DNA of 14,009 nt from contig CAZHPN010000162.1 in NCBI GenBank assembly GCA_964534375.1, forward strand, positions 1 through 14,009, read 5' to 3'. Shown in pieces: positions 1-14,009 of this stretch. Under the pieces are notes generated by a model that saw nothing but the letters and a program-made list of their open reading frames with translations, made no database searches and was not told the DNA's origin. The number at the start of each line of letters is the position of its first letter. Position 1 is the stretch's first letter. Both the position numbers and the translations under genes were made by a program. Origin of the DNA: an uncultured bacterium. Its GTDB lineage: Bacteria > Lernaellota > Lernaellaia > Lernaellales > Lernaellaceae.

Positions 1-2
1 TG

Positions 3-446
3 CTCGACGTGCTGGACCAGATGAGCTTCGACATCATGGAAATCGACAAGACGATGCACGCGCTGCACCGGCCGATCATCATCATCACGAGCAACGCGAA
101 GAAGGATTTGTCCGATCCGTTCCTCGGCCGCTGCGTCTTCCACCACATCGCCTTTCCGACGCCGGAATTCATGCGCCGCATCGTGCAGGCGCACTACGCC
201 GACCTGTCCGACCGCTTGATGCAGGCCTGCATCGAGGCCTTCTACAAGATGCGCGAGATCGACGGCGTCGAAAAGAAACCCGCGACCCGCGAACTGCTGC
301 ACTGGATTCGCGCCTTGATGTCCGAACCCGAGTTCGACGCCAAGAACCTCTCCGACGATCGCAAGATTCCGCTGCTGGGTCTGCTGTTCAAGAAATCCGA
401 GGATCTCGGCCGGGCGAAACGGGCGTTGCGGCAGACGGTGGCGTAG
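3..446 (+). CDS. MoxR-family AAA+ ATPase, C-terminal part (5' truncated by window edge)
   Basis: Frame is open back to the window start. Translation contains MoxR-like segments 'RPIIIITSNAKKDLSDPFLGRCVFHHIAFP' and 'KKPATRELLHW'. TAG stop at 444-446. The Walker A/B motifs are not in the window. Confidence 0.8.
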   Translation, partial: LDVLDQMSFDIMEIDKTMHALHRPIIIITSNAKKDLSDPFLGRCVFHHIAFPTPEFMRRIVQAHYADLSDRLMQACIEAFYKMREIDGVEKKPATRELLHWIRALMSEPEFDAKNLSDDRKIPLLGLLFKKSEDLGRAKRALRQTVA

Positions 447-486
447 CCAGACGTTTCGCTTCGTGCGGTCCCGGCAAGACCCCGCG

Positions 487-993
487 CTAATCCGGTTTCT
501 TCGGCCCGGAATTTTGACCGATCTGCGCCGCCAGGCGCTTGACCGCCTCATTCTGGCGGCGAAACACGACCTCGAAGAAAGCATACGGCATGCCGTAGGG
601 ATCGGGGATGTCGCCGCCGCGCTGCGCGTCGTCGGCCCATTCGCTGAGCAGGAACGTCTTGTAGCCGGCGTTGAAATCGAGCGCGCGGACCGCGTCGGCG
701 TGCGATTTTTCCATGACGACGATCAAATCCGCGCGGCGCACCAATTCCCGAGTCAGCGGCGTGGCGCGATGATACGAGATGTCGAGGCCGTGCTCTTCGG
801 CAGTCTCGACCGCCTCGGGGCTGGCGAGCGCTCCCGGCGTCGCGACCGTGCCGGCGGAGTGGACTCGCGCGCCGCGCACCCCGGCCGTCGCCAGTTCGGC
901 GCGCAGGGCCGCCGCGGCCATCGGGCTGCGACAGATGTTGCCGGAGCAGATGACGAGGATATCGTGGATCGGAGTGGGGAGAGGCCTGGTCAT
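487..993 (-). CDS. Low-molecular-weight protein-tyrosine(/arginine) phosphatase, 168 aa
   Basis: P-loop 'VICSGNICRSPMA', 'HSAGT', 'ADLIVVME' and general-acid loop 'DIPDPYG'. ATG at 993 chosen because the 18-aa ORF extension is largely translated heptamer repeat. Ile in the CxGNICRS loop favours pTyr specificity over YwlE-type pArg (Thr). Confidence 0.9.
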   Translation of the reverse strand: MTRPLPTPIHDILVICSGNICRSPMAAAALRAELATAGVRGARVHSAGTVATPGALASPEAVETAEEHGLDISYHRATPLTRELVRRADLIVVMEKSHADAVRALDFNAGYKTFLLSEWADDAQRGGDIPDPYGMPYAFFEVVFRRQNEAVKRLAAQIGQNSGPKKPD

Positions 994-1006
994 GGCGAGA
1001 TCCGAA

Positions 1007-1172
1007 CGGGATTCGGGATTCGGGATTCGGGATTCGGAATCACGCACTTAAACACAGAGGGCACAGAGGAAGACACAGAGGGCGCAGAGGTTCGGGTTCC
1101 CGGGATCGGGATTCGGGACTCGGGGTTCCGGAATGGCGCTCCGGCACTGCACATTCCGCATTCCGCAATCCG
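1007..1172. repeat. Composite intergenic repeat: CGGGATT heptamer arrays, RCRCAGAGG 9-mer array, and an oppositely oriented CATTCCG heptamer array
   Basis: CGGGATT x4 plus CGGAATC (1007-1041). ACACAGAGG/GCACAGAGG/AAG/ACACAGAGG/GCGCAGAGG (1052-1090). Degenerate CGGGATT units (1093-1127). CACTGCA-CATTCCG-CATTCCG-CAATCCG (1145-1172). Confidence 0.9.
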
Positions 1173-1180
1173 CCATCGCT

Positions 1181-2218
1181 TCATTCCTCCGGTTCCTCCG
1201 CAAACAGATTCAGCGTCGCGCCTTTCGGAACCTTGCGGCTGAGGTGTTCGTAGGCGCGCGGGGTCGCGATGCGGCCGCGGGGCGTGCGCTTGAGGAAGCC
1301 CCGCTGGATGAGAAACGGCTCGATCACATCTTCGATCGTGTCTTTTTCTTCGGCGAGGCTGGCGGCGATGGTCTCCACACCGACCGGTCCGCCCTGGAAA
1401 TGATCGATGATAGTCAGCAGCACGCGCTGGTCCATCTTGTCGAGACCTTCCTCGTCGACGCCCAGCCGGTTCAGGCTCTTCGAGGCGATGGCATGCGTGA
1501 TCACGCCGTCGCTTTCGATCTGCGCGAAGTCGCGCAGGCGGCGCAGCAAGCGGTTGGCGACGCGCGGCGTGCCGCGGCTGCGGCGCGAGATTTCCCTGGC
1601 GCCTTCGTCTTCCATGGCGACGGCGAGGATGCGGGCGCTGCGCTGGATGATGGTCAGCAGATCGGCCGGTTCGTAGAAATCGAGCCGATCAACGATGCCG
1701 AAGCGGTCGCGCAACGGGTTGGCGATCAGGCCCAGCCGGGTCGTGGCGCCGATCAGCGTGAACGGTTCGAGCGGCATCTGCACGGTGCGCGCCGACGGCC
1801 CCTGGCCGAGAATCAAATCGATCGCGAAGTCTTCCATCGCCGGATACAGCTTTTCTTCGACGATTTTCGGCAGGCGATGGATTTCGTCGATGAACAGCAC
1901 GTCGCGCGGCGCGAGGTTCGTCAGCAGCGCGGCGAGGTCGCCGGCCTTTTCCAGCGCCGGGCCGCTCGTGCAGTGAATATTGACGCCCAACTCGGCGGCG
2001 ACGATGTGCGCCAGCGTCGTTTTGCCGAGCCCCGGCGGGCCGTAAAGCAGCACGTGGTCGAGCGACTCCTGCCGCTCGCGCGCGGCGCTGATGTAGACTT
2101 GCAAATTGTCTTTCAGCGTTTGCTGGCCGATGAACTCGGCGAAACGGCGCGGGCGCAACGAGGCTTCGAGCGCGGCGTCGTCGGTCGCTTTCGCCGGATC
2201 GATGTTCGGGCGGTCCAT
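1181..2218 (-). CDS. ruvB: Holliday junction branch migration ATPase RuvB
   Basis: '[13 protein letters not shown]', Walker A 'GPPGLGKTT', Walker B 'LFIDEIHRL', 'LYPAMEDF', '[13 protein letters not shown]', 'RTPRGR'. 345 aa, 3 nt downstream of ruvA. Confidence 0.99.
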
Positions 2219-2221
2219 GCG

Positions 2222-2830
2222 TTATTCCCTCGCCAGCCGCTTGAGTGCGGCGCGCACCACTTCCGGAATGGCGGCCGATTCGCCCAACGTCTTGCGCGCC
2301 TCCGCCACCCGCGCTTCGGCCTCGGCCGGCCGGTAGCCGAGGTTGAGCAGCGCGCTGATCGCGTCGTCGTCGGCGCGCGCCGGGCGCGGCACATGGTCGA
2401 TCGCCGCAAGTTTCGCTTCGGGCAGCAACGCGGCGGCTTTGTCGGTCAGGTCGACGAGAATGCGCTCGGCAGTCTTCGCGCCGATGCCGCGCACCTTGGC
2501 CAGCGCCCGCGCGTCGCCGGCGGCGATTGCGGCGAGCATCTGATCGGCCTGGAACGCCGAGAGCAGCGCCATCGCCGCCTTGGGCCCGACCTTGCTCACC
2601 GAAATCAGCAGACCGAAAACGCGCCGTTCCAGCGCCGTCGAAAAACCATAGAGGCTGATATCGTCCTCGCGCACGGCCGTGTGCACGTGCAACGTCACCG
2701 CGCCCGGCGGCTCGGGCAGCGCGTAAAAGCAGTTCGTGCTGATCGACACGAGATACCCCACGCCGCTGACGTCGACGACGACGTGGTCGAGCTCTTTGGC
2801 GGCGAGTTGCCCCGTCAAACGAGCAATCAT
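2222..2830 (-). CDS. ruvA: Holliday junction DNA-binding protein RuvA
   Basis: 'MIARLTG', 'VDVSGVGY', 'VREDDISLYGF', HhH motifs 'VSKVGPKAA' and 'VRGIGAKTAERI', C-terminal 'ALLNLGY'. 202 aa. Confidence 0.98.
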   Translation of the reverse strand: MIARLTGQLAAKELDHVVVDVSGVGYLVSISTNCFYALPEPPGAVTLHVHTAVREDDISLYGFSTALERRVFGLLISVSKVGPKAAMALLSAFQADQMLAAIAAGDARALAKVRGIGAKTAERILVDLTDKAAALLPEAKLAAIDHVPRPARADDDAISALLNLGYRPAEAEARVAEARKTLGESAAIPEVVRAALKRLARE

Positions 2831-2846
2831 GGGAGATCCCCAGGAA

Positions 2847-2968
2847 GGAAAAAGGAAAAAGGAAAAAGGAAAAATTCGGGCGCCCGCGGGGCTGAAAGCG
2901 CGGCGCCAAGCCCGACTCGGGGTCTCTCTTCAGGCGCCGTTTTTTCTTTGTTCATTGTTGCTTTTTCC
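2847..2968. repeat. Inverted heptamer arrays (GGAAAAA x4 and a degenerate opposite-strand array x4) flanking a GC-rich core
   Basis: GGAAAAA at 2847-2853, 2854-2860, 2861-2867 and 2868-2874. TTTTTCT/TTGTTCA/TTGTTGC/TTTTTCC at 2941-2968 reads GGAAAAA GCAACAA TGAACAA AGAAAAA on the minus strand. Confidence 0.85.
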
Positions 2969-3473
2969 CTCGTTTCTCGATCTTGTCCAGCGCCAGCCGA
3001 ATGCCGCGGCTGTTGAGGTGGCAGATCGCGCCGGCGAGCGCGTCCGAGGCGTCGGTCATCGCGGATTCCGGCAGACGCAGCAGCGACTTGACCATCAGCG
3101 CGACCTGCCGTTTTTCCGCGCGGCCGTAACCGGCGACGGCCTGTTTGATCTGCGTCGCCGAATACTCGAAGACCGGCAGGCCCTCGTGCAGACAGGCGAG
3201 CATGGCGGCCGCGCGCGCATGGCCGAGCACCAACGCGCTGCGGGCGTTCTTGTGATAGAAGACGTTCTCCAGCGCGGCCTCCTGCGGGGCGTAGGTGCGA
3301 ATGCGTTCGCGCAGACCTTCGTAAATGCATTGCAAGCGGTCGGGCAAGCCGGTGCTCGTGTCGGTGAAAATGCCGCCGCAATCGACGTGGCACAGGCGCG
3401 CCGGGCGGGCGAGTTCTTCGACCACGCCCCAGCCGCAAATGCGGCTGCCGGGATCGATGCCGATGACGCGCAT
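2952..3473 (-). CDS. ruvC: Crossover junction endodeoxyribonuclease RuvC, 173 aa
   Basis: C-terminal part of the 2952..4337 ORF: 'MRVIGIDPGSRICGWGVV', 'ALENVF', 'LGHARAAAML', 'YSATQIKQAVAGYGRAEKRQV', 'DASDALAGAICH'. The ATG at 3473 overlaps the yebC stop (TGATG), indicating translational coupling. Confidence 0.97.
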   Translation of the reverse strand: MRVIGIDPGSRICGWGVVEELARPARLCHVDCGGIFTDTSTGLPDRLQCIYEGLRERIRTYAPQEAALENVFYHKNARSALVLGHARAAAMLACLHEGLPVFEYSATQIKQAVAGYGRAEKRQVALMVKSLLRLPESAMTDASDALAGAICHLNSRGIRLALDKIEKRGKKQQ

Positions 3474-4219
3474 CACTCGTCTGCCGGCATATCCTCGTCG
3501 GCGATGTCGTAGTTGCCCCAGACGTTCTGCACGTCGTCGATTTCTTCGAGGGCGTCGATCAGCTTGAGCAGCGTGTCGACATTCTTGCCCTCGACTTTGA
3601 CGGTGGTCGTGGCGATGCGGGCCAGGTCGGCGTTTTCGGGCTCGAAGCCGGCGTTGCGAAACGCTTCCTGCAAGGTGTTGAAGTCGGCGACGGCGCAGGT
3701 GACGGTGACTTCCTCTTCTTCGGCGAAGATGTCTTCGGCGCCGTTTTCGATCGCGACTTCCTCGAATTTGGCCATATCCACGCCGTCGCTCGGGAATTGC
3801 AGGCGGCCTTTGCGGTCGAACATCCAGCCGACGCTGCCGGCCGCGCCGAGGTTGCCGTTGTGCTTGTCGAACGCGTGGCGCACGTCGGCCGTGGTGCGGT
3901 TGCGGTTGTCGGAAACGGTTTCGATGATCAGCGCGACGCCGCCCGGCCCGTAGCCTTCGTAGGCGATTTCTTCGATCATCACGCCGTCGAGTTCGCCGGC
4001 GCCTTTTTTGATCGCGCGGGTGATGTTCTCTTTCGGCATGTTCGCCGCGCGGGCCGACGCGACCGCATTCCGCAGACGGATGTTGCTGTCGACGTCGCTC
4101 CCGCCGCCGCGAGCGGCCAGCATGATTTCCTTGTTCAGACGCGAGAAGATGCGGCCGCGTTTCGCGTCCGCCGCGCCCTTCTTGCGTTTGATCGTGCTCC
4201 ACTTGCTGTGACCTGACAT
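3473..4219 (-). CDS. yebC: YebC/PmpR/TACO1 family protein, 248 aa
   Basis: 'MSGHSKWSTIKRKKGAADAKRG', 'YEGYGPGG', 'SDNRNRT', 'WMFDRKG', 'LEEIDDVQNVWGN'. SD GGAGG (4224-4228, minus) precedes the ATG at 4219. Classic yebC-ruvCAB synteny. Confidence 0.98.
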   Translation of the reverse strand: MSGHSKWSTIKRKKGAADAKRGRIFSRLNKEIMLAARGGGSDVDSNIRLRNAVASARAANMPKENITRAIKKGAGELDGVMIEEIAYEGYGPGGVALIIETVSDNRNRTTADVRHAFDKHNGNLGAAGSVGWMFDRKGRLQFPSDGVDMAKFEEVAIENGAEDIFAEEEEVTVTCAVADFNTLQEAFRNAGFEPENADLARIATTTVKVEGKNVDTLLKLIDALEEIDDVQNVWGNYDIADEDMPADE

Positions 4220-4290
4220 GACGCCTCCGTAAGAAATTCGCCGCAAACGCAGCCGCAGCCACGCTTTTTTCGTCGATAGGGCGAATGTGG

Positions 4291-4319
4291 ATTTTGCCGT
4301 TCCGGCGGTGGCTTGTCAA
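4291..4319 (-). promoter_or_regulatory. Sigma70-type promoter for the yebC-ruvCAB operon
   Basis: Minus strand TTGACA (4319-4314), 17-nt spacer, CAAAAT (4296-4291), about 70 nt upstream of the yebC ATG. Confidence 0.65.
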
Positions 4320-4481
4320 GCATTGGGCGCGCGCCAAAAAACGACGATCAACGGACTATTTCGCTTCGTCGGCCGCGGCCGACGGGGCGGCTAAACTATC
4401 GCCCAACGCAACGGCACGGGCGTCTTCCATCGCCTTCGTCGGGCGTGGTTATCTTCCAATTTGCGACAGGAGGAGGCTGCC

Positions 4482-5327
4482 ATGGATTGGGGAGCCGTTG
4501 ACGCGATCGCCACGGTCGTTTCGGCTGTGGCCTTTATCGTGACCGCACTTTACGTGCGGCAGCAGTTGCGGGCCGTCGAGAAGGATCGCTATCTCGAAAT
4601 CACCAACCAATTGTTCCAAATCTGGCAAGACCCGGATTTCATGGCGGCCCAACTCTGGCTGCTGCACAAATTGCAGGAGAAAACCTGGGCCGAGTTCATC
4701 GAGAAGCACCGCGGCGACTATGGCGAGGCGGCGTTTCATCGCGTCGGGGCGTTTTACACGCGGCTCGGAGCGCTGGCGCGGCTGCGGTTGATCGACGAAA
4801 AGGAAACGCTGTCGACCCTCGGCGGCTACGCGCTGGCCGTCTGGCAGAAAATCGAGCCGTTGGTCAAGGAGGCTCGCGCGCTCGAGAATTCGACGTTGTT
4901 CGCCGATTTCGAGCGCATCATCCCCGCGTGTTACGAGTGTTATGTGCCGAACCTGCGCGAACCGCGCAATATTCGGCTGTTCGCGCCGCAAAAACCGGCG
5001 GATCGTGTCGAGATTCGCGAGTTGCAGCGCAAAATCGAGGCCGGCGAGCCCGTCCTTATTCTGGATGTGCGAAAGACCGCCGACCACGATGCCGACCCGC
5101 GCCGGCTGCCCGGCGCCCGGCACATCGCGCCCGACGCCATCGCCGGGACCTGGGGCGAATTGCCGCACGATCGCGAGATCGTGCTGTACTGCGCCTGACC
5201 CGACGAAGCGACAAGCGCCCGGGCGGCGCTTTTTCTGAGCGAAAAAGGCTACTGCGCCCGCGCGCTGATCGGCGGCTTCAACGGGTGGCGCGACGCCGGT
5301 CTCCCGCTCGATTTGCCAGCGGCGTGA
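4482..5327 (+). CDS. Probable selenoprotein: N-terminal TM helix + DUF4760-like helical domain + CxxC + rhodanese domain with C-x-U loop (Sec at codon 239, TGA 5196-5198), 281 aa
   Basis: SD AGGAGG (4471-4476) before the ATG at 4482. The rhodanese domain begins 'LILDVR...RLPGARHI...LPHDREIVLYCA', then TGA, then continues in frame 'PDEATSARAALFLSEKGYCARALIGGFNGWRDAGLPLDLPAA' to TGA 5325-5327. This supplies the 'L.GG...W..AGLP' rhodanese C-terminal signature. A hairpin follows the internal TGA. Confidence 0.88.
5199..5235 (+). promoter_or_regulatory. Putative bacterial SECIS element
   Basis: Perfect 7-bp stem AAGCGCC (5213-5219)/GGCGCTT (5225-5231) with loop CGGGC. The loop starts 21 nt after the UGA and has G at position 2, as in the general bacterial SECIS model. 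A lower pairing GAA (5205-5207)/TTC (5233-5235) is possible. Confidence 0.7.
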
Positions 5328-5387
5328 ATCGTCATTACATGCTTCCAACTGACGGAAATCGAATTTCCGCACGAAAAGGAGAACAAC

Positions 5388-6323
5388 ATGTCCATTGCAA
5401 TCGTGGCCCCGACGGGCAAAGTGAGTTCGGCATTGACCTGCCATCTGCTGGATGCCAATGCCGACCTGGTGCTGCTGGCGCGGCATCCGGAGAAAGTCAA
5501 AGAGCACGCGGCGTGCGGCGCCAAAGTGCTGCAGGGTTCGCTCGACGACGAGAACTTCGTCATCAACGCCACCGAGGGCGTCGAGGCCCTTTTCTGGATG
5601 ATCCCGCCGAAATTCGACAGCGACGATTACCGCAGCTACCAGCGCGAGATCGGGCGCATCGGGGCGGCCGCGATCGCCGCCAATCAGATCCCGTATGTCG
5701 TCAACCTGTCGAGCATCGGCGCGCAGCATCCGAACGGCACGGGGCCGATCGCCGGCTTGCACGACGTCGAGGAGGCGCTGAACAAGGCCGCCAAGAACAT
5801 CGTCCACGTCCGCGCCGGGATTTTTTTCGAAAACCACCTGGGATCCTTGGAATCGGCCCAGAACCTGGGTCAGATTTACGCACCGATTCCCGGCGATCTG
5901 GCCATGCCCCAAGTAGCGACGCGCGACATCGCGGATTTTGCGGCGAATCTGCTGCTGCACCTGGATTGGCAAGGCCGCCATTACCGCGAACTTCACGGTC
6001 CGGCGGATCTGAGCTACAACGATCTGGCGAACGCGTTTTCCGACGTGTTGGGCAAAAAGGTCGACTTCGTGCAGGCGCCGCCGGAAGCGGTTCTCGACAG
6101 TTTGCTGAAGATGGGCTTCAGCCGCAACGTCGCGACGAGCTTCCTCGCAATGTACGCCGGCGGCGAAAAGGGTCTCGTGGCTCCGCTGGAGCCGCGGTCG
6201 GCGAATAACACGACCAAGACGACGTTCACGCAATTCCTGCGGGCGTATCTGCAAAAGACGGCGAAAGCAACGACGACGCCCCCGGCCGCGCCGAAAAAGC
6301 GCTCAAAACACCGTGCGGCGTAA
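5388..6323 (+). CDS. NmrA-family NAD(P)-binding (atypical SDR) protein, 311 aa
   Basis: Rossmann start 'IAIVAPTGKVSS', 'GSLDD', 'EGVEALFWMIPP', 'VVNLSSIGA', 'VRAGIFFEN', 'VATRDIA', 'LHGPADLSY'. SD AAGGAG shortly before the ATG. Starts 60 nt after the selenoprotein stop, so probably co-transcribed. Confidence 0.88.
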   Translation: MSIAIVAPTGKVSSALTCHLLDANADLVLLARHPEKVKEHAACGAKVLQGSLDDENFVINATEGVEALFWMIPPKFDSDDYRSYQREIGRIGAAAIAANQIPYVVNLSSIGAQHPNGTGPIAGLHDVEEALNKAAKNIVHVRAGIFFENHLGSLESAQNLGQIYAPIPGDLAMPQVATRDIADFAANLLLHLDWQGRHYRELHGPADLSYNDLANAFSDVLGKKVDFVQAPPEAVLDSLLKMGFSRNVATSFLAMYAGGEKGLVAPLEPRSANNTTKTTFTQFLRAYLQKTAKATTTPPAAPKKRSKHRAA

Positions 6324-6635
6324 CCGGGACGCGGCGCGGAGTTTGGCCCTGTAAGGAAGACCAGCGCCGGCCGACAACTTGGATAGACTTCTTGGCGCGC
6401 TCCTCCGAATCGCCAAAAGCGACTCAAAAGGAGTTCGGTGGCAGTAAAGGTTCCAAACTTTACATAAGGCCATCGGGGCTCAGAGCCGAACAAAACTGAA
6501 AAAAAGTTATGTTCAAGCTCTCGAGCCGCGCTGGGAAGCTGGATTTCCGCCTCGGTCGTTATCTGAAAAAAAGATTGGGAAGGGAAGTTGGTTGTTGCCT
6601 GTTTCCGTCCGGTGCACGCTCCACGATAAGAATCC

Positions 6636-9032
6636 TTATTTACGCTGACGGAAAAAATCAATCACGCTGTCGCGGTTCAGCGGGCTTTCACTGCGCGGTT
6701 CGGCGCCTTCCAGAAACGCCTCGTCCGCGGTCTCCGGACTGTCGTAGTGCGCGAGCAGGCCGGACCGCTCGTCGATCTTGCGGAAGACAATTCCCGGCGG
6801 CGGCTCGAACGCGTCGCCCTGCTGGCCGCGCGCGTAGTCGATCATGAACCGCGTCCAGATCGGCAGCGCGGCGCGCGCCCCGGTCAAGCCCACGTTCTTT
6901 TCGCGGTCGAAGCCGACCCAGGTCGCCGCCAACAGCGACGGCGTGTAGCCGACAAACCACGCGTCGTGCCCTTCGTTCGTCGTGCCGGTCTTGCCCGCCG
7001 CCGGGATCTTCAGGCCCATCCGCCGCGCCCCGGCCGCTGTGCCGGTCTCGAGCACGCCTTCGAGGATGTGCGTGACCAGATACGCCACCTGCGTCGGCAG
7101 CGCGCGGCGCGGCTTGACGCCGCGCTTCTCGAGCACGCGGCCGTTGCGATCGACGACGTCGCGGATGGCGATCGGCTCGCAGTAGTAGCCCTGGCTGGCG
7201 AGCGGCGCGTAACTGGCGGCCAACTCCAGCGGGCTCATTTCGGCGACGCCCAGGGCCAGCGACGGATACGGCTCCAGCTTGGCGATGACGCCCATCTGCC
7301 GCGCGGCGGCGATCACGCGATCGAGGCCGACGTCGAGCGCGACGCGCGCCGTCGGCACGTTGCGGCTGTGCTCCAGCGCGTGCCGCACGGTGACGTCGCC
7401 CTCGAATTTGCCGTCGAAGTTTTGCGGCGACCAGGGCTTGCCGCCGGAGGGGATCGTCAGCGGCTCGTCCTTGAGCATCGTCGCGCCGGTGAAATGGTAA
7501 TTGCGATCTTCATAGGCGCGCAGAAACGCCGCGGTGTAGACGAACGGCTTGAACGCGGAGCCGACCTGGCGGCGCATTTGCACGGCGCGATTGAACGGGC
7601 TGGCCGCGTAGTCGCGGCCGCCGACCATCGCGCGCACGTAGCCGGTGGACGGCTCGAGCGCAATCAACGCGGCCTGGAGGCGATTGTCGTCATTGGCCAC
7701 GAGCGATTTGGCGCTGGCCTCGAGTTCCGCCAGGGATTTCTGCACGGCGCGTTCGGCCATCCGCTGCAGCGCCACGTCGAGGGTCGTGTAGATCGCCAGG
7801 CCTTCGCTCTGCAGCACGTCCTCGCCGTAGCTGGCGGTCAATTGCTGGCGCAGGAAATCGATGAAGAACGGCGCGATGGTGCGCGACGGCATGTGCCGAT
7901 TGACCGACAGCGTTTGCGTTTTCGCGGCGACGAGGTCGGCGGCCGTGACGTGCAGTTGCGCCATCGCCTCGGGCATCTTCGCCAGCCGATCGAGAATGTA
8001 GTCGCGGCGGATGCGCGCACGCTCCTCGAATTTGCGCGGATTGTAGCCGGTCGGGCTGCGGATGAGGCTGGCGAGCAGCGCCGATTCGGCCAGCGTCAGT
8101 TCTTCCGGATTCTTGCCGAAGTAGAACCACGCCGCTTCGCCCAGGCCGCAGATCGAGACGCTGCCGGACTGGCCGAAGTAGATTTCGTTGATGTACACCT
8201 CGAAGATCTTTTCCTTCGGGTAGTGCATCTCCAGCACGATCGCCATCACCGCTTCCCGCCCCTTGCGCGTCAGCGTGCGTTCGGGCGAGAGGTACATATT
8301 CTTGACGAGCTGCTGCGTCAGGCCGCTGCCGCCCTCGCGAATCTTGAAGCGGATCAAGCCCTTCAACAGCGCGCGGAACACGCCTTTGACGTTGATGCCG
8401 TGATGCTCGAAGAATGCGGCGTCTTCGACCGCGGCGACGCTCCAGACGAGGCTTTTCGGGATCGCGGCCCACGGGATCAACCGCCGCTCCTCCTGCACCT
8501 GGCCGAAGAATCGTCCGATCAGTTCGGGCTCGACCTCGACCATCGGCATTTCTTCTTTTTTGGTCAGGTCGAACACCTTCGCGATCACGTCGCCGTTCAG
8601 CGTGATCTTGACCAGCCGCGGCTGCACGATCTCGCCCGGATAGGTGAACTTGCGCAGGTAGATCCACAGCGCCGTCGGCGATTTGAAGAACTCACCGGGC
8701 CGCGCGGGCTCATGATCGACCGATTGGTAGTCCAGGCGTTGCAGGCGGTCGAGGACGCCGGTGGTCAGCAGCAACGAGCCGGGCAGCATCGTTAGCGAAT
8801 CCGAATAGACGTGCGTGGGCAGCTTCCAGCGCTTGCCCTCGAATTTGGCGGTCAAGTCGTGGTCGATGGAAAACGCGTAGAGTCCGCCAGCGATCACCGC
8901 GGCGAGCGTCGCCCAAAACGCCAGATTGAACGCCCACCAGAGCGCGTAATGAAACCACCGTCGTTCGGAGGATTTCGCCGATTTTTTCCGCCCCGGTTCC
9001 GGGACGGTGCGGGACGCGCGCGGGCCGGGCAT
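6636..9032 (-). CDS. mrcB: Class A bifunctional penicillin-binding protein, PBP1B-type (TM, UB2H-like, transglycosylase, transpeptidase), 798 aa
   Basis: N-terminal TM. UB2H-like region 'KFEGKRWKLPTHVYS...LQRLDY...PGEF'. GT51 motifs 'EDAAFFEHHGI', 'GGSGLTQQLVKN', 'RKGRE', 'YINEIYFG'. Transpeptidase motifs SxxK 'GSAFKP', SxN 'SRN' and KTG 'GKTGTT'. Confidence 0.92.
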   Translation of the reverse strand: MPGPRASRTVPEPGRKKSAKSSERRWFHYALWWAFNLAFWATLAAVIAGGLYAFSIDHDLTAKFEGKRWKLPTHVYSDSLTMLPGSLLLTTGVLDRLQRLDYQSVDHEPARPGEFFKSPTALWIYLRKFTYPGEIVQPRLVKITLNGDVIAKVFDLTKKEEMPMVEVEPELIGRFFGQVQEERRLIPWAAIPKSLVWSVAAVEDAAFFEHHGINVKGVFRALLKGLIRFKIREGGSGLTQQLVKNMYLSPERTLTRKGREAVMAIVLEMHYPKEKIFEVYINEIYFGQSGSVSICGLGEAAWFYFGKNPEELTLAESALLASLIRSPTGYNPRKFEERARIRRDYILDRLAKMPEAMAQLHVTAADLVAAKTQTLSVNRHMPSRTIAPFFIDFLRQQLTASYGEDVLQSEGLAIYTTLDVALQRMAERAVQKSLAELEASAKSLVANDDNRLQAALIALEPSTGYVRAMVGGRDYAASPFNRAVQMRRQVGSAFKPFVYTAAFLRAYEDRNYHFTGATMLKDEPLTIPSGGKPWSPQNFDGKFEGDVTVRHALEHSRNVPTARVALDVGLDRVIAAARQMGVIAKLEPYPSLALGVAEMSPLELAASYAPLASQGYYCEPIAIRDVVDRNGRVLEKRGVKPRRALPTQVAYLVTHILEGVLETGTAAGARRMGLKIPAAGKTGTTNEGHDAWFVGYTPSLLAATWVGFDREKNVGLTGARAALPIWTRFMIDYARGQQGDAFEPPPGIVFRKIDERSGLLAHYDSPETADEAFLEGAEPRSESPLNRDSVIDFFRQRK

Positions 9033-9127
9033 GCTTCGTTCGCCTTATCGGTCGCTTCGGACCTTGAACATCGACTGCAAGGCGCCAGTCCCCCCGTTTC
9101 GCCCGACCCCGTGGACCCGCCAGCGAC

Positions 9128-9200
9128 AGCCACCTCGGAGACTTGAACTCCGGACCTGACGATTACGAATCGTCTGCTCTGCCAACTGAGCTAAGGTGGC
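9128..9200 (-). tRNA. tRNA-Thr(CGT), CCA not encoded
   Basis: Minus strand GCCACCT-TA-GCTCAGTTGGCAGAGC-A-GACGA-TTCGTAA-TCGTC-AGGTC-CGGAG-TTCAAGT-CTCCG-AGGTGGC-T forms a complete cloverleaf with anticodon CGT. It is followed by GTC rather than CCA. Confidence 0.97.
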
Positions 9201-9210
9201 GCGAGGGCGT

Positions 9211-9238
9211 ATTATAGTTAAATCAAATCGGCTGACAA
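9211..9238 (-). promoter_or_regulatory. Sigma70 promoter of tRNA-Thr (possibly reading into mrcB)
   Basis: Minus strand TTGTCA (9238-9233), 16-nt spacer, TATAAT (9216-9211), then GC-rich discriminator ACGCCCTCGC directly before the tRNA 5' end. This is typical stable-RNA promoter layout. Confidence 0.8.
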
Positions 9239-9301
9239 GCGCAAAAAACGAGTTCGACATGCATCCTTGCATCCGCCGGTGACAGCAGCTAAAGGATGGG
9301 C

Positions 9302-9574
9302 ATGAGTTTCCCGTCGTCATTCGTTCGCACGGTGTGGGAGAGGGCATCGCCGCATGTTCTGTTTTGCGGCGCCGCCGTCATCTATCCGGTGCTATTCAGA
9401 AACATCATCGTTTTCGATCGCCTGCAACTGTGGAGCGACGCGTTCCGCCAATTGCAGGGCGCCGAGCAATTTGTCGCCGCGAAAACGTTCCGGCTGGTCG
9501 GCAAAAGGCGCATTTTCCCCGATTCGCTTCGGGCCGCGGGCCCGGCGACCCGACGCCGGAGACCGCGCGCGTGA
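9302..9574 (+). CDS. Possible small hypothetical protein or gene fragment (90 aa)
   Basis: SD-like AAAGGA (9291-9296) lies 5 nt before the ATG at 9302. One hydrophobic stretch 'VLFCGAAVIYPVLFRNIIVF'. The Arg-rich tail looks like non-coding run-on. No family recognised. Confidence 0.25.
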   Translation: MSFPSSFVRTVWERASPHVLFCGAAVIYPVLFRNIIVFDRLQLWSDAFRQLQGAEQFVAAKTFRLVGKRRIFPDSLRAAGPATRRRRPRA

Positions 9575-9888
9575 CGCGAACAAGGCCGAGGCCGCGTTCG
9601 GGCGCGCCGGCGCAATTCGCTTCACCGACGGACGCCGCGCCACGTTAGCTGCCGTTTCATTTTTCGGTTCTGCCGAGCTATCCGGCGCCTTGGCCCGGAA
9701 TCGGCGCTGCACGGCGTACGCCGTTTCACCGTTCCGAAACCACGGCGTCGCCGCCGATGCGCTTGACTCCGCCGCAACGGCTATGCTGTACTTCGCACGA
9801 CGGCGGGGCGCTATTTCGCGGGGATTGGCTTGGTCGCGCGACGGCCGGCCGCGGGGCCGACTTGCCGGCGGAGGTCGTTTTTTAGTCC

Positions 9889-11211
9889 ATGAGCGACAGC
9901 GAATCACTTTTGACCGAGCGCGTTTTCGCCGACATCAAACGAATCTTTTTCTTGCGCGAAGCCAAGAGCGAATTCGTTCCGGGGCAGACGCTGGTGCGCT
10001 ATGCCGGCGCGGTTTACGACCATGAAGAAGTGAATGCGATGGTCGCCGCCATCCTCAACGGCTGGTTCGGCCTTGGCGCCAGAGCCGAGGAGTTTGAAAC
10101 GGAATTGGCCGCGCACCTCGGCGCCGCGGGCGGCGTGTTAACCAACTCCGGCTCCAGCGCCAGCTTGCTGGCCGTCGCCGGCCTAATGAGCCCGGCGTTG
10201 CCGGATCGCTTGCGCCCCGGCGACGAAATTATCGCGCCCGCCTGTTGTTTTCCGACGACGATCAATCCGTCGATCGTTCTCGGCCTGACGCCGGTTTTTA
10301 TTGATATAGTTCCCGGCACGTACACCATCGACGTCGATGACTTGCTCCGCGCTCTGTCCGCCGCCACGCGCGCGATCATCGTGCATCACACGCTCGGCAA
10401 TCCCAACGAAATGGCGCCGATCATGGAGTTCGCGCAGCGGCGCAATTTATTTGTCATCGAAGACAATTGCGGCACCATCGGCTCGGAGTACGACGGCCGG
10501 AAGACCGGGTCGTTCGGCGACTTGGCCTTCGAGTCGTTTTATCCCGCGCACCATCTCACGATCGGCGAAGGCGGCATGGCCCTCTACAATGACGAACGCT
10601 TCGCGCGGCCGCTGCGGTCGTTGCGCGACTGGGGCCGCGCCTGCTTCTGCCGCGGCGACGAGCAAGCGACGCTCGGCGCCTGCGGCCAGCGGTTTTCGCA
10701 CGCGATCGACGGCCGCGCTTACGATCACAAATACCTGTACAGCGAAATCGGCTACAATTTGAAACCCGTCGAATTCCAAGCGGCCATGGGCCTGGCGCAG
10801 TTGAAGAAACTGCCCGCCTTCCTGGCGCAGCGCGCCCGCAACTTCGCGCGCCTGCACGCCCGGCTCGCCGACCTGGCGGATGTTTTCATCCTGCCGGAGA
10901 GCCTGCCGGCGGCGAAGGCCAGTTGGTTCGCCTTTCCGCTGACGATCCGGGCCGGGGCGCCGTTCGACCGTTCCGCCGTCACAACGTTCTTGGAGGATCG
11001 CCGAATCCAGACGCGGCCCCTGCTGGCGGGCAACATCCTACGGCACCCGGCGTACCGCGAGACGCGCTGCCGCGTCGTCGGCGAGTTGACGAACTCCGAC
11101 TACCTGCTGCACCACGCATTTTTCGTGGGAATTTACCCGGGGCTGGGAGACCGGGAAATGGATTATATTGCCGACGTCTTGCAGGAATTCGTGCAGCAAC
11201 GTCGGAAATAA
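9889..11211 (+). CDS. rfbH: RfbH/DdhC (E1)-type NDP-4-keto-6-deoxyglucose 3-dehydrase (PMP/[2Fe-2S]; DegT/DnrJ superfamily), 440 aa
   Basis: 'TNSGSSASLLA', 'CFPTTINP', 'HTLGNP', 'IEDNC'. 'SFYPAHHLTIGEGG' has His in place of the Schiff-base Lys, diagnostic of E1/ColD-type dehydrases. Also the Cys cluster 'RDWGRACFC...ACGQRF' and 'YDHKYLYSEIGYNLK'. Confidence 0.88.
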   Translation: MSDSESLLTERVFADIKRIFFLREAKSEFVPGQTLVRYAGAVYDHEEVNAMVAAILNGWFGLGARAEEFETELAAHLGAAGGVLTNSGSSASLLAVAGLMSPALPDRLRPGDEIIAPACCFPTTINPSIVLGLTPVFIDIVPGTYTIDVDDLLRALSAATRAIIVHHTLGNPNEMAPIMEFAQRRNLFVIEDNCGTIGSEYDGRKTGSFGDLAFESFYPAHHLTIGEGGMALYNDERFARPLRSLRDWGRACFCRGDEQATLGACGQRFSHAIDGRAYDHKYLYSEIGYNLKPVEFQAAMGLAQLKKLPAFLAQRARNFARLHARLADLADVFILPESLPAAKASWFAFPLTIRAGAPFDRSAVTTFLEDRRIQTRPLLAGNILRHPAYRETRCRVVGELTNSDYLLHHAFFVGIYPGLGDREMDYIADVLQEFVQQRRK

Positions 11212-11245
11212 GCGCCGGCCCCGCCGACCGCGAAAGCAGCGCCAG

Positions 11246-12364
11246 ATGATCGACGACAAACCTATTTTCATGAACGGCCCCTGGATCACCGACCTCGAAA
11301 TCAAAGTCGTCGACGACTGCATGCGCGGCGGTTGGTACGATTATCACTTCGTGGAAATGTTCGAACAGGAATTTGCGGCGTATCACGGGCGTAAATACGG
11401 CCTGATGACGCCCAACTGCACGACGGCGATTCATCTAGCCTTGACGGCGATGGGCCTCCGGGAAGGCGACGAGGTGATCGCGCCGGATTGCACCTGGATC
11501 GGCAGCGTCGCCGGCGTCACCTATTTGCGGGCGACGCCGGTATTTTGCGACATCGACGCCGCGACCTGGTGTTTGGATCCGGAGTCGGCGGCGCGCGGCC
11601 TGTCGCCGCGCACCAAAGCGATGATCGTCGTCGATCTGTACGGGAACATGCCGCGGATGGACGAGTTGCTCGCGCTCGCGCAATCGCACAACATCCCCGT
11701 GCTCGAGGACGCGGCGAACGCGGTGGGCTCGACGTACAAAGGCGTCCGCGCGGGCAAGTTCGGCCTGGTCTCGGTCTTCAGTTTCCATCGCACCAAGACA
11801 ATCGTCACCGGCGAAGGCGGCATGTTGCTGACCGATGACGAGCAACTGTTCGAGCGCTGCCGCGTCCTGCGGGACCACGGCCGCCGCCCTGGCGGGCCGC
11901 CCTATTACAATTACGAGGTTGCCTACAAATACATGCCGTTCAATCTGCAGGCGGCGATGGGCCACGCCCAATTTCAACGGCTTGAGGAACTGGTCGGCAG
12001 GAAGCGCTCGCTCCTGCAACAATATCGCGATTTGCTGGCGGACATTCCGGACATTCAACTCAATCCCGAGCCGCCCGACGGCGTCAACGGCGCGTGGGTC
12101 ACGGCGTTGGTGTTCGGCCGCAGCCATCGGCTCACGAAAGCCGAGGCGATGCGACGCCTGACGGAATTGGGGCTGCCGACGCGGCCGTTCTTCTATCCGT
12201 TGACGGCGATGCCGGCCTACGCGGCCGCCGGCGCCGGCCGCGCGCCGAACGCCGTGGCGCATGATATCTCGGACCGCGGAATCATTTTGCCCGCGGCGCC
12301 GATCCTGACGGAAGCGCAACTCTCGCGTTACTGCGACGGCATCAAGAAAATCATCGGCCTGTGA
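11246..12364 (+). CDS. DegT/DnrJ/EryC1/StrS-family sugar aminotransferase (perosamine synthase-like), 372 aa
   Basis: 'NCTTAIHLAL', 'GDEVIAP', 'ATPVFCDID', 'VDLYGN', 'VLEDAA', and 'SFHRTKTIVTGEGG' with the catalytic Lys retained. ATG at 11246 chosen, 34 nt after the rfbH stop. The longer ORF start overlaps rfbH. Confidence 0.92.
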   Translation: MIDDKPIFMNGPWITDLEIKVVDDCMRGGWYDYHFVEMFEQEFAAYHGRKYGLMTPNCTTAIHLALTAMGLREGDEVIAPDCTWIGSVAGVTYLRATPVFCDIDAATWCLDPESAARGLSPRTKAMIVVDLYGNMPRMDELLALAQSHNIPVLEDAANAVGSTYKGVRAGKFGLVSVFSFHRTKTIVTGEGGMLLTDDEQLFERCRVLRDHGRRPGGPPYYNYEVAYKYMPFNLQAAMGHAQFQRLEELVGRKRSLLQQYRDLLADIPDIQLNPEPPDGVNGAWVTALVFGRSHRLTKAEAMRRLTELGLPTRPFFYPLTAMPAYAAAGAGRAPNAVAHDISDRGIILPAAPILTEAQLSRYCDGIKKIIGL

Positions 12365-12884
12365 TCGCGGGCAATGGAGGTGAGTGCGCGCAGGCGATCG
12401 ACTCGGGCGCCTCGGCGACGGTTTCGCCCGGATAGCCGAACGGACCGGGCGGGTCGCGATCGTCGATGAACGCCGCCCGCCGGATTCGCCCGCACGCCGC
12501 GGTTCGCGCCAGGCCGGCCCGGGAACGTCATGGAAACCCCCGCCCTCCGGCGGCATCTAGCCCTTTCGCGGCGTTATGGTATCCTCGAAGTATGTGTTTT
12601 TCTCAGGGGATGGCCGTTTGATCGGGCATTATCGAGACCCACCGTGTACGGCGCGGCGCGCCCCGCAACGTGCTGGAAAATAAGCTGCAAGTTCCGAGTT
12701 CGGCCGCGCATGGAGGATGCCGCCTGCCGCGATGCAAGAACGCCGTCGGGCGGCATGCGTGACGTTTTCCGCGAAAAATCGCCGGCGCCGGCGGCCGTTT
12801 CGCGACCTAACAGATTGTTATTACTGCTGTTTTATTTTCATGGACAGAGAGGTTTTTGTTTGATAGGTTGATGGTGTTTCTAGT

Positions 12885-12912
12885 TTGACAACGTCGCTTT
12901 GCAATTTAGATT
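12885..12912 (+). promoter_or_regulatory. Putative sigma70 promoter for the downstream secreted-protein gene
   Basis: TTGACA (12885-12890), 16-nt spacer, TAGATT (12907-12912), within an AT-rich patch (about 12805-12915). Confidence 0.5.
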
Positions 12913-13035
12913 TGCGCGTTATGGCGGCCCTGGGGTAGCAGCGAAGCTGCTGGCCGATCAACACTGAAATGCTTCTCCGATCTCGCCGGTTCCGCCGGCG
13001 AGTTGCGACGAAGTTTGGGGCCAAGGGGGCATGGC

Positions 13036-13944
13036 ATGAGACCACTATACCGCCGGGCGCTCGTGGGCGCCTTGGTGCTGCTGACCGCGGTGCTGGCGAT
13101 TCAATCGGTCGTCAGCGCGGCGAAAAAAAAGCCGCTGGCGCACAATGACATCCCGCCGGCGATGGTGATTCCGTCGCGGCCGGCCGATGCGATCACCGGT
13201 TCCGAGTTCGCCCGCCGGACCGAGGGCATGTCCGAAGCCGAACGGCAAGCGGCGGCGCTCGTCGAATTGCGATCTGGGAATGTTCCCCCGTCGTCCCGCC
13301 GCCTTACGGCGGTTTCGATGACGGGCGAGAGCCCGGACGGACAACCTGTTACCGCCACGGTCTGGGTCATGCCCGACTATTTGTCGATCGGCTCGGACCA
13401 GGATTTCTTGCGGGCGCCGCTGACCTATTCCTCGGCTGCCGCCATCGCCAACGAATTCGGGGCGGTGCTGCCGACGCCCAAGATCGTGGACGCGGTCTAC
13501 GACCGTTCGACGGAACGCCTGACGCCGCAGCCCCTGCCCGCCGGCCGCGGCATGCGCTCGAGCGAATACTGCCTGCGGCATCACGAGATGATCCAGCAGC
13601 AACTCCAGCGGATCGAACCCCGGCGAATCGGCGACCTGGTTGCGGGCCACAAGAAAGATGTGGTCATCACCAATCGTTTGCTGAAGAAACCCCGCCAAAT
13701 TGCGATCTACGGCTGGCACCGGTCGTCGGGCAAACCGATCCAGCCCCTGAGTACGGTCCATGAAGCCGAATACGCGGATTACAGCCATGGCGTGCGGCTC
13801 GTCAGTCGGACGGTCCGGATCGACGGCCAGAAGCATTCGATCGTTCGCGCGCTGGAAGACCCGCGCGTGGCCCCGGCCCTGAGCTACGAAGGCCCGCTGA
13901 TGAACGTCGATCGCCTCATGCGGCGCACCGTCCCGATTCCATAA
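13036..13944 (+). CDS. Exported protein of unknown function, 302 aa
   Basis: SD-like AAGGGGG (13023-13029), ATG at 13036. Signal peptide 'MRPLYRRALVGALVLLTAVLAIQSVVSA/A'. Globular, motif-rich body 'VMPDYLSIGSDQDFLRAPLT', 'LPTPKIVD', 'AGHKKDVVI', 'IYGWH', 'IQPLSTVH', 'YADYSHGVRLV', with GC3-rich codon usage. Confidence 0.85.
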   Translation: MRPLYRRALVGALVLLTAVLAIQSVVSAAKKKPLAHNDIPPAMVIPSRPADAITGSEFARRTEGMSEAERQAAALVELRSGNVPPSSRRLTAVSMTGESPDGQPVTATVWVMPDYLSIGSDQDFLRAPLTYSSAAAIANEFGAVLPTPKIVDAVYDRSTERLTPQPLPAGRGMRSSEYCLRHHEMIQQQLQRIEPRRIGDLVAGHKKDVVITNRLLKKPRQIAIYGWHRSSGKPIQPLSTVHEAEYADYSHGVRLVSRTVRIDGQKHSIVRALEDPRVAPALSYEGPLMNVDRLMRRTVPIP

Positions 13945-14009
13945 GCCGAAGTTCCCGGCCAAGAAACTAATAAGTGGCTGATTATTCAGGGAAAGTGCAG
14001 AAATCGGCG

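Follow-up and report, generated by a model that had tools for sequence, protein, structure and literature searches.

Introduction

Rhodanese-like proteins in which a cysteine is followed two residues later by selenocysteine (Sec, U) form a recognised class of bacterial selenoproteins, as had been stated in an earlier note on the DNA analysed here. These CxU rhodaneses are listed as 'form 3, NF041203, CxU' in the parts of PMC13188914 that we draw on, and they are entered as 'COG0607 form 2, CxU' in the corresponding parts of PMC9312934. Here, we describe a gene for a relative of this class in a 14,009-nt stretch of DNA from an uncultured bacterium of the phylum Lernaellota (contig CAZHPN010000162.1 of assembly GCA_964534375.1, positions 1 to 14,009), which is referred to in its whole length as the window. 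The gene carries an in-frame TGA at 5196-5198, within the active-site motif of its rhodanese domain.

The curated NCBIfam model for the class, NF041203 (rhodanese_LYCAU, 'rhodanese-related (seleno)protein'), covers a stand-alone protein of about 126 residues. The window protein resembles it in having a single rhodanese domain, an L-Y-C-A-U motif (V-L-Y-C-A-U in the window) and the putative Sec two residues past the Cys. A Sec-containing rhodanese fused to a second thiol-redox module is also found in TsoB (NF045694, 'form 5', UxxxxU), described as rhodanese/DsbD fusion-like in the parts of PMC13188914 used here. The same source gives, in the legend of its Fig. 2, a model of the bacterial Sec insertion sequence (SECIS) in which a 4-16 bp stem carries a 3-9 nt loop with a G among its first two positions, together with a UGA-to-loop distance of 16-37 nt and an energy of -7.5 kcal/mol or lower.

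From comparative sequence analysis we conclude, with a probability of roughly 93%, that UGA 5196-5198 is a Sec codon, decoded by SelB and a SECIS in the way that is standard for bacteria. The known CxU Sec-rhodanese occurs here in a fused variant, which is widespread and consistently cut in public annotation.

Results

The rhodanese frame continues past an in-frame TGA

The frame of the open reading frame (ORF) 4461..5198 (+) closes as EIVLYCA followed by TGA at 5196-5198. Past this TGA the frame stays open for 42 sense codons, up to a second TGA at 5325-5327, and the peptide is the one quoted in the earlier note. The full selenoprotein coding sequence, including this true stop codon (5325..5327, +), would thus span 4482..5327 (+) and encode 281 residues, with TGA 5196..5198 (+) specifying Sec at residue 239. 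Two residues before it, TGC 5190..5192 (+) encodes the Cys of the C-x-U motif, an invariant column in all 24 sequences of alignment A3 (column C64). The Pfam Rhodanese family matched residues 186-278 of the 289-residue read-through at 44.9 bits, compared to a cut-off of 22.2, and the match crosses the UGA, so that the continuation does complete a rhodanese domain as had been proposed. In the window this domain (PF00581) lies at 5016..5294 (+), and its identity was also found by Foldseek comparison with solved rhodaneses. In the database, the window's own protein is called from ATG 4482 with a length of 238 aa.

Most homologues carry TGA or a cysteine codon at the same column

Homologues were searched for among 5.8 billion clustered proteins. 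This gave 212 at E <= 0.001, and the best 120 among these were examined; all counts of homologues below refer to these best 120 of 212. In 109 of them, including the window's own, the gene call stops exactly two residues past the first motif Cys. The other 11 run on with C-x-C-P and a complete rhodanese domain, and no homologue fell outside these two classes. Where the cut forms have a name it is 'hypothetical protein', and that of the Cys forms is 'rhodanese-like domain-containing protein'.

The codons themselves were read at loci from one-genome-per-species contigs, where 25 of the 50 stretches that fitted the search patterns coded for a relative. At the 23 readable loci the codon at the column was TGA in 16 (in addition to the window), TGC or TGT in six and TGG in one. 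The two remaining loci have breaks in the reported frame, yet both have the TGA and the hairpin, which brings the total to 18 TGA loci out of 25. The alignment of the UGA with a conserved Cys, which the earlier note had stated for related domains, was therefore seen both in the 11 homologues and in 6 of the 25 loci. Close relatives with TAA or TAG at this position, or with a frameshift, had been named as evidence that would speak against Sec; neither stop codon occurred at the Sec column in any of the 25 loci, and no frameshift was found at the site.

The single locus with TGG, encoding Trp, at the Sec column (L058:876-878) retains six of the seven hairpin pairs, and its genome has selA. A recent change from Sec to Trp might explain this codon, as might a slip in sequencing or a replacement that is tolerated.

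The sequence downstream of the TGA behaves as coding sequence

Seventeen TGA forms were aligned, namely the 16 loci and the window, from phyla that include Planctomycetota, Armatimonadota and Eisenbacteria. None of the 17 has a stop codon in the 31 codons that follow the UGA, and in each of the other two frames 9 of the 17 do. The pairwise differences per site at codon positions 1, 2 and 3 were 0.258, 0.245 and 0.479 after the UGA and 0.361, 0.297 and 0.576 before it. Variation is dominated by the third position on both sides, which indicates the same coding constraint after the UGA as before it. Conservation to either side of the UGA had been put forward as a check of the proposal; the alignment shows it, with a coding periodicity in the downstream part. 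Ten of the 17 genes have TGA as their own terminator, so there is no general reassignment of TGA.

A covarying hairpin follows the TGA

A perfect 7-bp stem is formed by 5213-5219 and 5225-5231 around the apical loop CGGGC at 5220-5224, and we assign this element (5213..5231, +) as the SECIS hairpin. The earlier note had placed a 7-bp stem with a CGGGC loop 21 nt past the UGA; the stem, the loop and the distance of 21 nt to the loop were reproduced, but the stem itself already starts at 14 nt. With a loop of 5 nt, a G at loop position 2, 7 bp, 21 nt to the loop and -11.0 kcal/mol for the 24-nt segment, the hairpin lies within the model of PMC13188914, as given in the parts used here. The loop in relatives is mostly CGUGU.

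The hairpin was kept and covaried among the 17 TGA forms, in agreement with the SECIS-like element first proposed. RNAalifold returned a single consensus element for these sequences, which was the core of the hairpin 5213-5231. Across the seven stem pairs of the 17 sequences, 90.8% of the 119 cells were paired, a level reached by 0 of 500 shuffles, and when the 3' partners were shifted by 1-3 columns as a control only 21.8-60.5% were paired. Double-sided changes were present in three pairs: a G-C pair had become A-U at two loci, a C-G pair had become U-A at one, and the outer pair was found as G-C, A-U and C-G. The TGA forms (n = 17) kept 5-7 of the seven stem pairs, compared to 2-4 in that register for the Cys forms (n = 6) and six for the TGG form.

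A second hairpin, specific to the window, can form at 5220..5260 (+). It has the inner stem CUUUUUC/GAAAAAG and the loop UGAGC (5236-5240) at 37 nt after the UGA, and it is a thermodynamic competitor of the SECIS stem, whose 3' arm it shares. This second hairpin is unconserved and is missing from the consensus fold of the 17 sequences.

The genome encodes the Sec machinery and the TGA is present in a contig from another sample

The assembly of the window consists of 381 contigs and is 94% complete. It contains a tRNA-Sec (78.1 bits, above the cut-off), for which ARAGORN gave the anticodon TCA, a selA gene (586 bits) and a selD gene (353.4 bits; G000:C112:2531-3454, L018). The selB gene was found as two pieces with 218.1 and 134 bits, each under the cut-off of 242.25. 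Thus, the tRNA-Sec, selA, selB and selD that the earlier note had expected elsewhere in the genome are all represented. Both selB pieces are at contig ends (G000:C302:1-1710, profile positions 60-580, and G000:C43:2-262, profile positions 2-87), and as far as can be seen the split is an assembly break and not a broken gene. The selD gene has one in-frame TGA of its own, and by its sequence the selenophosphate synthetase is itself a predicted selenoprotein in this genome. Other genomes were compared for selA, which was above the cut-off in 15 of 15, with eight carrying the TGA form, six the Cys form and one the TGG form. The presence of selA was considered as a discriminator between Sec and Cys forms and was rejected, as it is present in all 15 genomes and gives no contrast.

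The earlier note had allowed for reads with TGC or TGT in place of TGA. Logan contigs of three runs matched the TGA stretch without differences; two of these runs may have been the source of the DNA. The contig of the third run, X3, whose sample was not flagged as a possible source, has 877 bases and covers 4510-5386 with 0 differences.

Short contigs (151-299 bases) of runs X1 and X2 match only 33-37 bases of 5187-5223, with 2-3 differences, and then continue as unlike sequence. They look like copies from other community members of the stretch from Cys-x-UGA to the SECIS, conserved at the nucleotide level.

A putative membrane helix and a probable DUF4760 domain precede the rhodanese domain

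The Met equivalent to ATG 4482 is the start of most homologues, and a Shine-Dalgarno-like sequence read directly from the window, AGGAGGAGG (4469..4477, +), ends 4 nt upstream of this ATG. A hydrophobic N-terminal helix is encoded at 4488..4556 (+) and would serve as a membrane anchor; AlphaFold modelled one long helix from residue 3. The basic residues after the helix suggest that the remainder of the protein is cytoplasmic. A helical domain, probably DUF4760 (PF15956), is encoded at 4596..4919 (+). Its Pfam match to residues 46-153 of the 289-residue read-through scored 25.0 bits, which equals the cut-off (25), and PF15956 is among the precomputed Pfam hits of nearly all homologues. At the end of the helical domain a CxxC motif (C-Y-E-C; 4929..4940, +) occupies invariant columns in alignments A1 and A4, and the pattern P-x-C-x-x-C-[YFH]-[VIL]-P was found in 119 of the 120 homologues. 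When the read-through protein was scanned with PADLOC and PHROGs, 0 families were found with each.

The AlphaFold model of the read-through, built with 19 sequences, had a pLDDT of 85.8 and a pTM of 0.53. In model numbering, the long N-terminal helix with its hydrophobic first part leads into a helical domain that extends to residue 161, followed by a low-confidence linker (162-180) and the rhodanese domain. In the latter, the loop C-A-U-P-D-E (244-249) lies between a strand (239-243) and a helix (250-261). A Foldseek search with the model returned solved rhodaneses only (E 2e-7), among them 3gk5, with a target TM of 0.91 and an rmsd of 1.6 over 106 columns, and 3tp9. The N-terminal domain modelled alone was all-helical (pLDDT 86.4), and Foldseek gave no match for it at E <= 0.001. 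Two assignments of this domain from the best VIA-align rows were rejected, both below the level that is meaningful for helical bundles with this tool: the EDS1/PAD4 helical domain (Z 9.9, rmsd 3.5, 118 aligned) and the C-terminal domain of GST, which appeared in many rows at a Z of about 6.

The fold of the rhodanese domain is that of the solved Cys-rhodaneses, including 3iwh, 3gk5, 1yt8 and 6mxv, the persulfide reductase 3nta and the persulfide dioxygenase fusion 5ve3. In gap-free alignments the C-x5-S spacing from the catalytic residue to a Ser is the same as in the window protein, whose active-site loop reads C-A-U-P-D-E-A-T-S. In three of the five best profile alignments (1yt8 domain 2, 6mxv and 3iwh) the catalytic Cys falls on the Sec column without gaps, and the invariant Ser lies six residues past this column, matching the C-x5-S loops of these proteins. 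The solved proteins differ from the window protein in having Cys instead of Sec and no Cys at -2, their identity to it is 24-28%, and their active-site loops are basic whereas that of the window protein is acidic (P-D-E).

The fused form is distinct from the catalogued CxU rhodaneses

NF041203 was the best NCBIfam hit of the protein, with 73.8 bits compared to a cut-off of 115, and model positions 18-123 matched residues 178-283 of the 289-residue read-through. It was also the best hit for five of five fused relatives scanned (72.0-86.8 bits, all under 115) and for one stand-alone relative. Since the scores are under the 115-bit cut-off, the window protein is not an equivalog member of NF041203. 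It differs from the stand-alone model in that the rhodanese domain makes up the C-terminal third of 281 residues and in the addition of the membrane helix, DUF4760 and the CxxC; the N-terminal 170 residues are assigned to DUF4760. For the fused form there is no NCBIfam model in release 20.0. Compared to TsoB, as described in the parts of PMC13188914 used here, the window protein has another Sec motif and another partner domain, and TsoB has two Sec residues; NF045694 was not among the NCBIfam hits of the window protein at E <= 0.1. DUF4760 is not mentioned in the parts of the two reviews (PMC13188914 and PMC9312934) drawn on here, and a literature search for it returned one unrelated paper. 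A search for LYCAU/NF041203 gave unrelated papers only among the matches listed. Thus, the Sec residue, the motif and the domain type are already known, and the fused architecture is undescribed in the literature that was searched.

The stand-alone relative (L073:406-735, - strand; G022:C62) is a rhodanese of 109 residues from an unrelated genome. Its best NCBIfam hit was NF041203, with 72.6 bits and under the cut-off, and an 11-bp hairpin lies about 15 nt after its UGA, the same geometry as in the window. Here TGA is found at both motif positions (L-Y-U-T-U-P-G-E), with the hairpin following the second. This protein is possibly a UxU variant of the CxU rhodanese with two Sec residues.

Distribution is patchy across several phyla

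Relatives at 47-59% identity were found in Planctomycetota (Isosphaeraceae, Gemmataceae), Armatimonadota (Chthonomonadales, Fimbriimonadaceae), Eisenbacteria and Actinomycetota, and the loci from Actinomycetota are Cys forms. In the 16 other genomes compared from the window's phylum, matches did not extend past the rhodanese part: they began at query residue 172 or later and reached at most 37% identity. A tree of 24 sequences, built with the Sec column masked, did not resolve the backbone, and it paired the window weakly (80/90) with an Eisenbacteria locus. The Cys label required four changes on the best tree, of which only one was forced by well-supported branches. The patchy distribution suggests transfer, for which no donor can be named. 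One gene copy, on a contig titled 'uncultured archaeon' (L052; CAWHLK010000056.1), grouped with a Fimbriimonadaceae (Armatimonadota) copy with 100/99 support, which could reflect a wrong bin label or a transfer of the gene.

The neighbours of the gene in the window are a divergent RuvC/YebC on one side, and an NmrA-like gene and a class A PBP downstream. The closest YebC with a named source is that of Candidatus Lernaella stagnicola (63% identity), which points to the phylum without proving it. When the ORFs within 3 kb of the gene were clustered for the 25 loci and the window, only the gene itself and shadow ORFs recurred. Other neighbour clusters were confined to at most three loci, which were close kin.

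Discussion

The reading of UGA 5196-5198 as a Sec codon is based on the pairing of Cys and TGA among homologues, the coding character of the sequence after the UGA, the covarying hairpin, the Sec machinery of the genome, the contig from a second sample and NF041203 as the best family hit. From this comparative signature and the machinery, which were both observed directly, we infer the insertion of Sec. A ribosome that reaches the UGA would meet the hairpin at 5213-5231, which would recruit SelB carrying Sec-tRNA(Sec). Sec would then be inserted in place of termination to give the protein of 281 residues, consisting of the N-terminal membrane helix, DUF4760 ending in the invariant CxxC, a flexible linker and the single rhodanese domain.

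Several observations weigh against this reading, or against parts of it. The 71 nt of 5190-5260 folded alone do not stand out from shuffles in stability, with a z of -0.44 and 56 of 200 shuffles folding as well. Their minimum-energy fold omits the SECIS hairpin, which in this context has a pair probability of 0.002 and lies 4.3 kcal/mol above the minimum; only with the 42 nt of 5199-5240 does it become the fold of minimum energy. In the fold check that the earlier note had suggested near 5196-5260, the hairpin was thus present in the consensus of the 17 TGA forms but not in the minimum-energy fold of the 71 nt alone. A scan of 5100-5400 against Rfam at E <= 10 gave no SECIS family and only two chance-level rows for small RNAs. 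The machinery does not separate the forms, as selA is also present in six of six Cys-form genomes and in the TGG-form genome, and L058, in which the hairpin is kept, shows that a non-Sec reading of the column is viable in at least one lineage. The gene neighbourhood, unconserved among the 25 loci and the window, gives no hint of function. With regard to the active site, 3tp9 and 6pfz, the other two of the five best profile alignments, align their catalytic Cys with the first motif Cys and show a two-residue gap. AlphaFold places both the Cys and the Sec of C-x-U in the loop 244-249. On balance, we consider it likely that Sec occupies the canonical position of the catalytic Cys, with an invariant Cys at -2.

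Three other explanations of the TGA were considered. Termination always competes with Sec insertion in bacteria, and public gene calls end at the column in 109 of 120 homologues, as they would if the TGA were a real stop that gives a functional product of 238 residues and leaves the conserved stretch downstream untranslated or as a relic of a pseudogene or truncated gene. Such a product would break the rhodanese fold at its active-site loop. The 31 downstream codons are open in 17 of 17 TGA forms with mostly third-position variation, a relic would not stay at 50-60% protein identity over several phyla, and the 11 homologues with Cys run through the column; a real stop is for these reasons very improbable. 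Slightly more room, though still little, is left for read-through without Sec, in which a near-cognate tRNA-Trp or tRNA-Cys would insert Trp or Cys at residue 239 and the hairpin would merely act as a stimulator. In favour of it, L058 has TGG at the column and keeps six of seven hairpin pairs. Against it, the hairpin agrees with the SECIS model of the SelB type down to the G of the loop, and the full Sec machinery is present in this genome and selA in all eight other TGA-form genomes examined. In addition, six of the seven non-TGA loci carry Cys, the classic partner of Sec, and the nearest curated family is a selenoprotein family.

The least probable of the three is an error of sequencing or assembly with TGC or TGT as the true codon. 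The assembly is fragmented into its 381 contigs, but the same letters were found in contigs of three runs, including the 877 bases of X3 with 0 differences, and TGA stands at the same column in 18 of 25 independent loci. The misread codon that the earlier note had named as a way to overturn the proposal is thereby made very improbable. Decoding of the UGA as Sec is accordingly the reading that we retain.

For the function of the selenoprotein only a tentative proposal can be made. The C-x-U pair might cycle through a selenenyl-sulfide, or might carry sulfane sulfur or selenium, and the CxxC is a possible second redox centre. Basic active-site loops of rhodaneses go with thiosulfate-type substrates. 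With the loop P-D-E being acidic, thiol/selenol redox chemistry or a chalcogen relay fits better than classical thiosulfate sulfurtransferase activity. The protein may therefore act as a membrane-tethered thiol/selenol or sulfane-sulfur relay between C-x-U and CxxC, a redox-relay function to which we give somewhat less than an even chance.

More speculative still, and in our view rather doubtful, is a wider proposal in which the CxU rhodanese with its embedded SECIS is a portable Sec cassette that has been fused repeatedly to membrane anchors, here the helix and DUF4760. The DUF4760 fusion would then be a distinct, so far unrecognised selenoprotein family with two redox centres (CxxC and C-x-U), acting as the membrane-tethered relay described above and occurring in a patchy manner in wetland and soil Planctomycetota, Armatimonadota, Eisenbacteria and the window's phylum, probably through horizontal transfer.

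The advance is incremental, as CxU Sec-rhodaneses are catalogued already and recoding follows the usual bacterial mechanism. At least 109 public protein clusters are cut at the Sec codon and called 'hypothetical protein' where they are named. With a model of its own, the protein would be annotated at full length, and the selenoproteomes of bacteria from soil and wetland would gain a family. By setting the Sec-rhodanese beside an invariant CxxC on a membrane tether, the fusion offers this selenoprotein class a concrete pairing that lends itself to testing.

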